IMG/VR virus record: IMGVR_UViG_2534681738_000015
From: a virus
Lineage: Duplodnaviria > Heunggongvirae > Uroviricota > Caudoviricetes
Direction: 5' to 3' (one strand)
DNA length: 9,353 bases
Made by a program: the position numbers. This document shows, one piece after another, positions 6,001 to 9,000 of the stretch (position 1 is the stretch's first letter; each line of letters opens with the position of its first letter).

Positions 6001-9000
6001 GTTTGGTGAAATTCTTTCCCGAAAGCTGGATGAACTGGAAAAGCTGGTAGAAGAAGCTGACACCTCACCAATCGCATAACACCCCCACCGACATTAAAAT
6101 ATCAGGAGAAAAAAATGAACGCCGTACTCACAGAATTGAACAAATTAGGAAAAGCAACAGCCGACAGCATTTCTAAAGGTCTCAATATTGATTTGAATGA
6201 CGTCATTGATACGCTGTGGAAGTTGAAAAACCAGGGGATCGTAAAGGTAAAAAACGGCATCTGGCAGGCAGTAGAGGGAGTTGGAAGCAAAACAGATATT
6301 GATTCAGTTCAACCAGTTCAACCAGTTCAGCCAGTTCAGCCAGTGCAGAACAACATTATAGGTGACCTGCTACGTAAATCACGGAAAGAAGCGCGCCGCG
6401 CCGGGCGGAAACAGAAACGATGGGAGGGTGCATGTAAGGCGTTGCAAGAACTGAATAAATACCGTGACTTGATCAACGAATTGTCAGAGTGAACGTAGCG
6501 GGAATCCACGTCCTTTAGGGCGTGGATGATATCAGGCTGTTGAAATACATGTAGAAAAGGAGCGCATACTATGGAAGTCAACTTAATGACCGAAAAAGAG
6601 GTTTCTGATTTGTTACAAAAAAGGCGCACAGCTTTGTATAATTTGCGAAAAAAACACGGATTCCCGGAACCAGTACTTACTCATCCGGCGCGATATAGTC
6701 GTCAGGCCGTTGAACAATGGCTTAAAGCCGGAGGAATTAACCGAGCTGTTTAGCGTGCCAGAAAATTTTATCAGCATACAACTCATACGCATCTTTCTGT
6801 TCCGACAACCAGTCGTGTTTATTATACACGGCCATAACTCCCCCAAGTTCATGCCCCAGCATTTTTTCAGTGACGTGGGGCATAATTCCTTCCCCAGATA
6901 AATTCGTTACCAGAGAACGCCTAAAATCATGCGTTCTCCATTCAGGAATATCAATTTTCTCCCTTAACTTTTTCATGTACAAATTAGCCGACGAACGATC
7001 AATAGGTTTATCTATTTCCTGCCCGGGGAATAGCACATCAAAACCCGCATTAAGCAATCTCTCGATATAAGGTTTAACCTGAGTGAATACCGGACGCCGG
7101 ATAATATTCCCCATTTTTGAATGCTCTTTTGGGGTTGTCCAGACCAGATCTTCCATGTTGAACTCACTGGCTGTCGCGAGACGTAGCTCAGAAAGTCTGG
7201 CCCCCCATAGCAATAGCAATTGATGTAACACCTTGTTGGAAGTAACTACTTTTGAGTTCTCCAGCGCCAGCCAAATTTTTGCCAGTTCCGTATAGGTAAG
7301 TACACGACTCCCTACATCTGGTTTTTTCCCAATATTCTTAACACTAAGCTTGAGTAATTCGCATGATGGGATTAACTGGCGGCTGATACACCAGTTAATA
7401 ACTGAACGCAGTTGTAACAACAAAACACGAGCCTTTTTCTTGTTGAGGCTTTCTTGTTTGTCAAAGAAACGAGCCCATGCCGATACTGGGATACTGGCAA
7501 CTGGCGAGCCTTCAAACTGTGTGTACATAGTGTTGTACACGACGGATCTGTAAAGCGTCTGTGTATTGGGTTTCAGATCAGTAACATACTTATCCCACCA
7601 CTGATCCAGGCATTCTTTTAATGTCAGTTCGCCGTCACTGGGCGCAAAATAATTTTTAGGGTTAACTCCCTTCATGTACAATGCGCGCATCTCACCGACG
7701 ATAACACGCGCGTCCTTCAGTGAAGTAGACGGATAGCGCCCGACAGTAAGACGTACTGGCTTACCATTCCAGCGATAACGGTACTGAAACGTGATAGTTC
7801 CTGCTGGAGTAATCCGCACACTTAACCCGTCACCATCGGTGATTTCAGCAGGGCCAGAGTAGGGTTTTCCGTAGAGGCCTCGTAGTTTGGTGTCGCTCAG
7901 TGCCAATGCTTTATATCCTGTACACAAGTTTATAATGTATTCTGTACTCAATATGTACGCATTAGCAAGTGAACAAAACACTTTTCAACGCAAAAGAAGA
8001 TAATCAACCATGAACAAAAACAAACTTACACCTTGATTTTAAAACCATAAAGACGGTATTATCAGTCATATGGTGAACAACCAAAATCAATACGCAACAA
8101 TGTCCTCTTAGTTAAATGGATATAACGAGCCCCTCCTAAGGGCTAATTGCAGGTTCGATTCCTGCAGGGGACACCATTTATCAGTTCGCCTCCATCCGTA
8201 CCAGTCCGCAAAATCCCCTGAATATCAAGCCTTCCGTAGATTCACAGTTCGTCATGGTTCGCGTCAGATCGTTGACAGCCGCACGCCATGACGGGTAAAA
8301 AGTGGATAAAATAATTTTACCCACCGGATTTTTACCCATGCTCACCGTTAAGCAGATTGAAGCAGCAAAGCCGAAAGAAAAACCATACCGCCTACTCGAT
8401 GGTAATGGCCTGTACCTTTATGTCCCTGTATCAGGGAAAAAGGTATGGCAGCTTCGCTACAAGATTGACGGTAAGGAGAAAATCCTGACCGTCGGAAAAT
8501 ATCCGCTTATGACTTTGCAAGAGGCAAGGGATAAAGCATGGACTGCGAGGAAAGACATCTCGGTTGGCATCGATCCGGTAAAGGCGAAAAAGGCTTCGTC
8601 TAACAACAATTCCTTTAGTGCGATTTACAAGGAATGGTACGAGCATAAGAGGCAAGTCTGGTCAGCCGCCTATGCGACTGAACTTGCAAAAATGTTTGAT
8701 GACGACATTTTACCTATCATCGGCGGCCTTGAAATTCAGGATATTGAGCCGATGCAACTGCTGGAAGTAATCCGCAGATTTGAAGATCGCGGGGCAATGG
8801 AGCGAGCCAACAAAGCACGCAGAAGATGCGGCGAGGTTTTCCGTTACGCTATTGTCACCGGAAGGGCTAAATATAACCCGGCACCTGACCTTGCTGAAGC
8901 CATGAAGGGATACCGCAAGAAGAACTTCCCGTTTTTACCTGCCGACCAGATCCCGGCATTCAACAAAGCACTTGCAACATTTTCAGGAAGTATCGTATCT

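Follow-up and report, generated by a model that had tools for sequence, protein, structure and literature searches.

The question raised by this locus is how a single tRNA gene came to be flanked by two integrase genes, of which the intact one lies upstream of the tRNA and is transcribed away from it. The locus is contained in a 9,353-nt stretch of DNA (hereafter the window, position 1 being its first letter) belonging to the Caudoviricetes record IMGVR_UViG_2534681738_000015. Our analysis identified positions 6571-8176 as attR, one of the two prophage attachment (att) sites, together with the phi24B-type recombination module of a ~62-kb lambdoid prophage of Escherichia coli O157:H7 that carries Shiga toxin 2a (Stx2a) (rough probability 0.95). 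This module, consisting of the integrase gene int and the excisionase gene xis, and its site in the tRNA-Arg(CCU) gene argW are already known and characterised. The original prediction, made from the window by itself, had placed an intact 390-aa integrase upstream of the tRNA and transcribed away from it. Its position, orientation and intactness were all confirmed, whilst the length was corrected to 389 aa, as the figure of 390 counts the stop codon. The locus was laid out as follows:

6571-6753, plus strand: xis, 60-aa excisionase gene (Pfam HTH_17).
6737-7906, minus strand: int, 389-aa tyrosine integrase with a TTG start (open reading frame, Pfam, RefSeq annotation).
6737-6753, both strands: 17-nt tail-to-tail overlap of int and xis (read from the sequence).
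7907-8101, unstranded: P arm of phage attP, which forms part of attR in the window.
8102-8176, plus strand: tRNA-Arg(CCU) gene argW (ARAGORN, the sole tRNA found, anticodon CCT; sequence identical to K-12 argW).
8102-8125, plus strand: phage att core, 24 bp, GTCCTCTTAGTTAAATGGATATAA (argW nt 1-24).
8162-8177, plus strand: KplE1/CPS-53-family core, 16 nt, CTGCAGGGGACACCAT (argW 3' end, exact match).
8338-9281, plus strand: intS, KplE1/CPS-53-like remnant integrase, truncated by an insertion sequence (IS) (RefSeq annotation of identical sequence, Pfam).

The start of int and the 5' end of argW were 195 bp apart, with the two genes on opposite strands and divergent. The ATG of intS was 236 bp downstream of the start of the 24-bp core.

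The phage attachment core is the 5' end of argW

The att sites were compared using attR from the window, attL from E. coli O157:H7 TW14359, attB from K-12, attP from the circular record of phage 86 and the phi24B genome end, through three-way and five-way alignments and exact-match positions. Against the unoccupied yfdC-argW-intS region of K-12, homology began exactly at the tRNA 5' end, and positions 7907-8101 could not be aligned with the native K-12 yfdC-argW spacer. The same stretch was essentially identical to the int-proximal attP arm of phage 86 and to the phi24B genome end. In the attP of phage 86, this arm is followed by the same 24 bp and then by the phage sequence found at attL. At the attL of TW14359, GTCCTCTTAGTTAAATGGATATAA stands between the native spacer with the argW promoter on one side and phage DNA on the other. 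The 24-bp sequence occurs once in the window (8102-8125), and its two copies in TW14359 (at 3,189,637 and 3,251,895) are spaced such that the prophage measures 62,258 bp.

The 24-bp block corresponds to argW nt 1-24, comprising the 5' strand of the acceptor stem, the D stem and the D loop. At nt 25, the next position, attB and attR have C whereas attP and attL have T, which puts the exchange left of nt 25. The crossover was most probably in the D loop, between the D-stem inverted repeats GTTA and TAAC. Consistent with regeneration of the target, an intact argW was found at attR and a displaced 24-nt 5' fragment at attL, in direct orientation. This differs from the usual layout, with the element downstream of the tRNA and contributing its 3' part; here the element is upstream and supplies nt 1-24. 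As the phage brings the 5' part of argW, int comes to lie upstream of, and divergent from, the regenerated tRNA. A site at argW nt 1-24 accounts for both the upstream divergent int and the presence of two integrases flanking one tRNA.

A separate attachment site within 7907-8101 had been proposed as one option, with a direct repeat of that stretch to be sought at the far end of the element. Neither proved correct: this stretch is the phage P arm, the core is argW nt 1-24 and the repeat at the far end is the 24-bp argW core instead. The comparison with an empty site that had been suggested alongside, run here as K-12 versus TW14359, did place attL and attR, at argW nt 1-24. It had also been considered that the left-hand integrase might use the same tRNA-derived core as IntS. 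The core is indeed tRNA-derived, but it is not the one used by IntS (nt 1-24 versus 8162-8177).

The 24-bp block has been recorded under several descriptions. It is labelled attL, overlapping tRNA-Arg, in HQ424691 and 'duplication due to insertion' in the LC616031 series, and a 24-bp att for argW prophages is given in the O145:H28 and O157 genomics literature. Phage-argW junctions are used in typing by polymerase chain reaction, and argW occupancy is used to type O157:H7 strains. In experiments on phi24B, the crossover was defined as 24 bp, the minimal attP measured 350-427 bp and the minimal attB 62-93 bp, and integration host factor (IHF) was dispensable (Mohaisen et al. 2020, PMC7581858). 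In the phi24B papers, the primary site is given as '250 bp upstream of intS' and the tRNA goes unmentioned (PMC3064807, PMC7581858), and argW and intS appear as separate Stx-phage insertion sites in O157 typing papers. Judged by sequence, the '250 bp upstream of intS' site and the 'argW' site are one site, argW nt 1-24.

Two independent elements occupy opposite ends of argW

Positions 6400-8400 of the window were 100% identical to E. coli O157:H7 strains TW14359, EC4115, SS17 and others. Of 5426 complete E. coli genomes, 209 carried the whole module at the argW locus, whereas the tRNA part was matched in every one of the 5426. In TW14359, the neighbours to the left were the lambdoid early-left genes cIII, kil, gam, bet, exo, ea22, ant and an MT-A70 methylase, and then xis. 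Farther left were replication genes, nin genes, Q, three phage tRNAs and the stx2a A and B genes, and beyond these lay lysis, terminase, portal, capsid and tail genes, as far as yfdC. This gene content assigns the left 8.1 kb of the window to an Stx2a-converting prophage, of which it forms the right end. The int DNA was also 100% identical to phages PA2, PA8 and VT2phi_272, the identity with PA8 covering the whole module, and the same int-xis module was found in the packaged, inducible Stx phages phi24B, 86, PA2, PA8 and P27. PA8 lysogenises MG1655 at argW, and the genome of the laboratory lysogen WG5::PA2 possessed an identical int-tRNA junction.

The other end of argW belongs to a different element. 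The 16-nt core of the KplE1/CPS-53 family, CTGCAGGGGACACCAT, is located at the argW 3' end (PMC2951348), and the K-12 annotation has CPS-53 beginning within that end. In the window, this core is followed by intS in the same orientation, as expected of a KplE1/CPS-53 element. K-12 carries IntS/CPS-53 at argW and no left-hand phage; WG5::PA2 carries the phage at argW and no IntS element, with dsdC directly after the tRNA. These single-occupancy genomes bear out the earlier suggestion that the locus might be a composite of two elements. Two independent elements here share one 75-nt tRNA gene, each using an opposite end of it, and the IntS element, now a remnant, is separate from and older than the Stx prophage.

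Two other explanations for the pair of integrases were weighed against this one. Since two integrase genes flank the same tRNA within 1.6 kb, the left-hand genes and IntS could be taken for a single two-integrase island inserted into argW from the 3' side. This has a negligible probability and is ruled out by the occurrence of IntS/CPS-53 without the phage in K-12 and of the phage without IntS in WG5::PA2; in addition, the cores differ (nt 1-24 versus the 16-nt 3' core) and the tRNA lies between the phage and the IntS element. It is just as improbable that int and the small gene next to it constitute a P4-like satellite, or an island of the phage-inducible chromosomal island type, wedged between the prophage and the tRNA with its att in 7907-8101. 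Int does belong to the P4-like family and carries Arm-DNA-bind_3, and small HTH_17/AlpA-like genes beside P4-type integrases are typical of satellites. However, the comparison of attL, attR, attP and attB ruled such an element out, as there is no second boundary and the 24-bp repeats bracket the entire 62-kb prophage from yfdC to argW. The int-xis module is moreover carried by packaged, inducible Stx phages, the attP arm of these phages has exactly the sequence of the 7907-8101 spacer, and the phi24B counterpart of the small gene has shown excisionase activity. The Stx2a prophage module together with a separate IntS element thus remains the explanation that we adopt.

The intS gene itself was interrupted. 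The sequence after 9281 diverged from both TW14359 and K-12, and the last 72 nt of the window (9282-9353) were an end of IS629/IS1203, with an exact match to the IS1203 copy of TW14359 (L003 28426-28486). The IS was inserted in intS, cutting it after ~315 codons, and this intS::IS junction was not found among the complete E. coli genomes in our collection. The window must then stem from a strain or contig outside that collection, probably a draft contig whose end is the IS.

The closer integrase relatives lie beside a divergent tRNA-Arg(CCU)

We further investigated this arrangement by scanning one genome per species, which returned 33 loci encoding Int relatives, and by aligning 21 spacers and scoring the information in each column. 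All 20 relatives with 67-91% Int identity and enough upstream flank had a divergent tRNA-Arg(CCU) ~195 bp from the int start. Relatives in this range span more than 15 genera of Enterobacterales. This included Erwinia, Enterobacter, Pantoea, Brenneria, Xenorhabdus, Providencia, Tatumella, Salmonella, Morganella, Proteus, Rosenbergiella, Rouxiella, Limnobaculum and others. Relatives at 54-63% Int identity had no tRNA within 3 kb upstream of int and must therefore use another target.

The integrase gene and its promoter

On the minus strand, the reading frame ending at 6737 is open back to a GTG at 7981 (414 aa). The TTG at 7906 is both the RefSeq start and the experimentally corrected start of phi24B int (PMC3064807). 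Int contained the Pfam domains Arm-DNA-bind_3, SAM-like and Phage_integrase, and was identical to phi24B Int at 379 of 389 residues (97%, 10 substitutions) over the full 389 aa. The phi24B int gene is inverted relative to lambda, has its own promoter, is not repressed by CI and starts with TTG, and 5' rapid amplification of cDNA ends located its transcript start 46 bp inside a mis-predicted 1245-bp reading frame (Fogg et al. 2011, PMC3064807). This frame corresponds to 6737-7981 of the window, and the mapped start therefore falls near 7935. A candidate promoter and a set of short boxes were found in the corresponding part of the P arm:

7939-7968, minus strand: predicted int promoter (pInt), -35 TTGCTA (7968-7963), 18-nt spacer, -10 CAGAAT (7944-7939).
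7919-7925, 7943-7949 and 7954-7960, unstranded: TGTAC-containing boxes, invariant or nearly so in 21 relatives and overlapping pInt.

Transcription from the predicted pInt would start near 7933-7935, so this assignment of the hexamers fits the mapped start. Its -35 TTG and positions A2, A5 and T6 of its -10 were among the high-information columns in the 21 relatives, and the int-proximal half of the spacers displayed a conserved TTG...cAnnAT signature on the minus strand. A GAACA(A) repeat occurred three times, at ~7971, ~8012 and ~8073. The TGTAC boxes and the GAACA(A) repeats are candidate arm-type binding sites for Int and Xis, and may serve in autoregulation of pInt; autoregulation has been predicted for divergent tRNA-integrase pairs (Panis et al. 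2010, PMC2951348).

The excisionase gene and the convergent overlap

The 60-aa product of 6571-6753 matched only HTH_17 in Pfam (E = 1.4e-6), indicating a MerR-like fold. It was 93% identical to phi24B Xis (4 substitutions), and its counterpart is labelled excisionase in AP012533, LC710660 and KU977420. For phi24B, the excision activity of Xis has been shown by complementation, and Int alone integrates but cannot excise (PMC3064807). The gene context of 6571-6753 is that of a lambdoid leftward early (pL) operon, not of a satellite. xis closes the pL operon of the prophage and encodes a recombination directionality factor (RDF). The label 'AlpA-like' given to it in the original prediction is loosely apt, as the fold is common to AlpA and Xis-type RDFs, but its role is that of an excisionase, and a function as regulator of a P4-like island is not supported. 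With 93-97% identity between the proteins, integration by Int alone, Xis-dependent excision and CI-independent int expression would be expected to carry over from phi24B to the module in the window.

The stop codon of xis (TAG) is at 6751-6753 and that of int (TAA, reverse complement) at 6737-6739, giving the 17-nt overlap of convergent genes that had been noted previously. Gene lengths and overlap are unchanged in the phi24B record (int 236-1405, xis 1389-1571). An overlap of 17-23 nt was present in 18 of 21 relatives, down to ~55% Int identity and including relatives unlinked to a tRNA, whilst in the other three the genes were 2, 25 and 590 nt apart, the last of these in a locus with a truncated int. 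No terminator-like site was found between the convergent genes in a scan of 6400-8400. Given the overlap and the lack of a terminator between the genes, transcripts from pL and pInt may collide, or pair in antisense as the original prediction had suggested. Speculatively, such collision could lower Int relative to Xis on induction.

This raises the question of whether the 17-nt overlap serves specifically to adjust the Int:Xis ratio by antisense control, rather than being a by-product of compact packing. The length of the overlap is kept in 18/21 relatives, some of them away from a tRNA, no terminator-like structure was found between xis and int, and the two genes are under opposed regulation, with int constitutive and xis under pL and CI. 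Nevertheless, we regard antisense control as unlikely. Three relatives lack the overlap, and its conservation elsewhere may reflect inheritance of the genes as a block, with both C-termini under constraint at the protein level. The published model of phi24B directionality (PMC3064807) works without antisense effects.

A putative phage-borne promoter faces argW

A consensus scan identified a second candidate promoter in the spacer, reading in the opposite direction to pInt:

8033-8062, plus strand: sigma-70-like promoter toward argW, -35 TTGATT (8033-8038), 18-nt spacer, -10 TATTAT (8057-8062).

Its -10 ends 39 nt before the tRNA +1. Across the 21 spacers, the TTG was invariant, the 18-nt spacer was kept in 21/21, TAnnAT in 20/21 and the 39-nt distance to the tRNA +1 in 20/21. 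The only positions in 8029-8101 with at least 1.5 bits were the TTG (8033-8035), G8055, TA (8057-8058) and AT (8061-8062), and the bases between the conserved promoter positions varied freely. The conserved TTG-N21-TAnnAT pattern is likely to be a sigma-70-like promoter reading into the tRNA. Since the native argW promoter ends up at attL upon integration, the phage-borne one probably serves to transcribe the regenerated argW.

These observations point to the following mechanism. Int recombines attP (P arm 7907-8101, 24-bp core and P' arm) with attB inside argW, pushing the native argW promoter and nt 1-24 62 kb away to attL, beside yfdC. The regenerated argW is then preceded by phage DNA and, to judge from its conservation, the 8033-8062 promoter would most probably drive the tRNA in lysogens. 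The argW transcript would have a leader of ~32 nt, which RNase P would remove. Int would be expressed from its own promoter in the P arm, free of CI repression, and the position of xis at the end of the CI-controlled pL operon would couple excision to induction, as shown for phi24B.

As a finding, identification of the module is of little consequence, since it is an experimentally dissected module of medically important Stx2a phages. Our additions are targeting of the tRNA-Arg(CCU) 5' end across the clade, the sublocation of the crossover in the D arm and the phage-borne tRNA promoter, and their novelty is modest. In the literature searched, we found no explicit statement of D-loop or 5'-end targeting, or of promoter replacement, at argW. 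We tentatively propose, at somewhat worse than even odds for the whole, that in this clade the crossover lies in the D arm of tRNA-Arg(CCU), a sublocation separate from the anticodon-loop and T-loop/junction classes, and that a promoter in attP takes over argW in every lysogen. The comparative data suggest that the phage swaps the promoter of a rare-codon tRNA gene, which could bear on gene expression in lysogens. If this is true, expression of the AGG-decoding tRNA would be phage-controlled in Stx lysogens, and induction might boost argW via N-antiterminated read-through from pL, in the sense direction into argW.

Several points weigh against parts of this interpretation. Strand exchange is placed only to within 24 bp, here and in the available papers. 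Displaced 5' tRNA fragments are assumed for the distant relatives, attL having been compared in TW14359. The candidate promoter facing argW was recognised from its consensus match and conservation, and its fixed spacing could also reflect intasome geometry. The hexamers of pInt were assigned by inference, and interference between int and xis, antisense or transcriptional, is speculative. We found nothing that contradicts the identification of the module itself.

On the attL side of TW14359 (L003 ~3745-3775, outside the window), a GC-rich hairpin, ATGCCCCG...CGGGGCAT, is followed by a T-rich run. The displaced native argW promoter and the 24-nt tRNA fragment are situated ~90 bp upstream of this hairpin, which could be a terminator for that promoter, and also for the convergent last late gene of the phage.

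Relation to known integration systems

The phi24B system (also found in phages 86, 1717, PA2, PA8, VT2phi_272 and P27) has the same gene lengths, overlap, P arm, core and target as the module described here, and the same inverted int with its own promoter. Three features of a phi24B-type module were found in the window: a near-identical P4-like Int with a TTG start, a convergent 60-aa Xis and the common 24-bp core. The adjacent cargo between exo and xis differs from that of phi24B, with no functional difference apparent.

The KplE1/CPS-53 (IntS/TorI) and HK620-type elements use the same tRNA gene and a P4-like integrase with an arm-binding domain. In KplE1/CPS-53, the integrase promoter lies inside the att region, as in the phage described here (PMC2951348). 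However, IntS is downstream of the tRNA and co-oriented with it (STI shape), whereas the Int of the window is upstream and divergent (OD shape), and the two integrases are distinct proteins that differ in their middle domain, Phage_int_M being detected by Pfam only in IntS. Placement on the 3' side, which the original prediction had given as normal for tRNA-integrating elements, agrees with two surveys. In Islander, a displaced 5' fragment of the tRNA gene was recorded for 159 islands versus a 3' fragment for 3760 (total 3919) (PMC4383910), and the integrase-first (SIT) and divergent (OD) arrangements jointly made up <8% of 1273 tRNA-integrase pairs (Panis et al., PMC2951348). The arrangement in the window is therefore rare but catalogued. 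It resembles the islands whose target gene is restored at its 5' end, in which the element brings the 5' part, must supply a promoter and has int upstream. Another 5'-end site is that of the dusA islands, which integrate at the 5' end of dusA (PMC4482086). The crossover classes of Islander are centred on the anticodon or located in the T stem/junction (PMC4383910), whereas the block in the window stops at nt 24, in the D arm, and falls into neither class.

Lambda Int/Xis likewise consists of a heterobivalent tyrosine integrase, an arm-rich attP and a small RDF encoded at the end of the pL operon. The lambda int gene is co-oriented with xis and is under the control of pL/pI and sib, whereas int in the window is inverted, CI-independent and convergent with xis. 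In further contrast to lambda, IHF is not required (phi24B, PMC7581858) and the target is a tRNA gene.

Other features of the window

Positions 1934-5250 were a 3.3-kb mosaic segment in place of 1.7 kb of the TW14359 prophage. This segment was common to Stx2a phages of the PA2/VT2phi_272 type and was found in 39 complete genomes. It contained the following genes:

2818-3123, minus strand: HigA-like helix-turn-helix protein.
3212-3493, minus strand: small putative lipoprotein.
3538-3798, minus strand: ParD-like ribbon-helix-helix antitoxin.
4120-4797: ORF6N protein.

Within 1934-5250, no obvious cognate toxin gene adjoined either the HigA-like or the ParD-like gene. Just upstream of xis, the gene for a DUF1627 protein (6115-6492) contained a 9-nt tandem repeat encoding a short tandem VQP repeat, VQPVQPVQPVQP, the length of which may vary from phage to phage.

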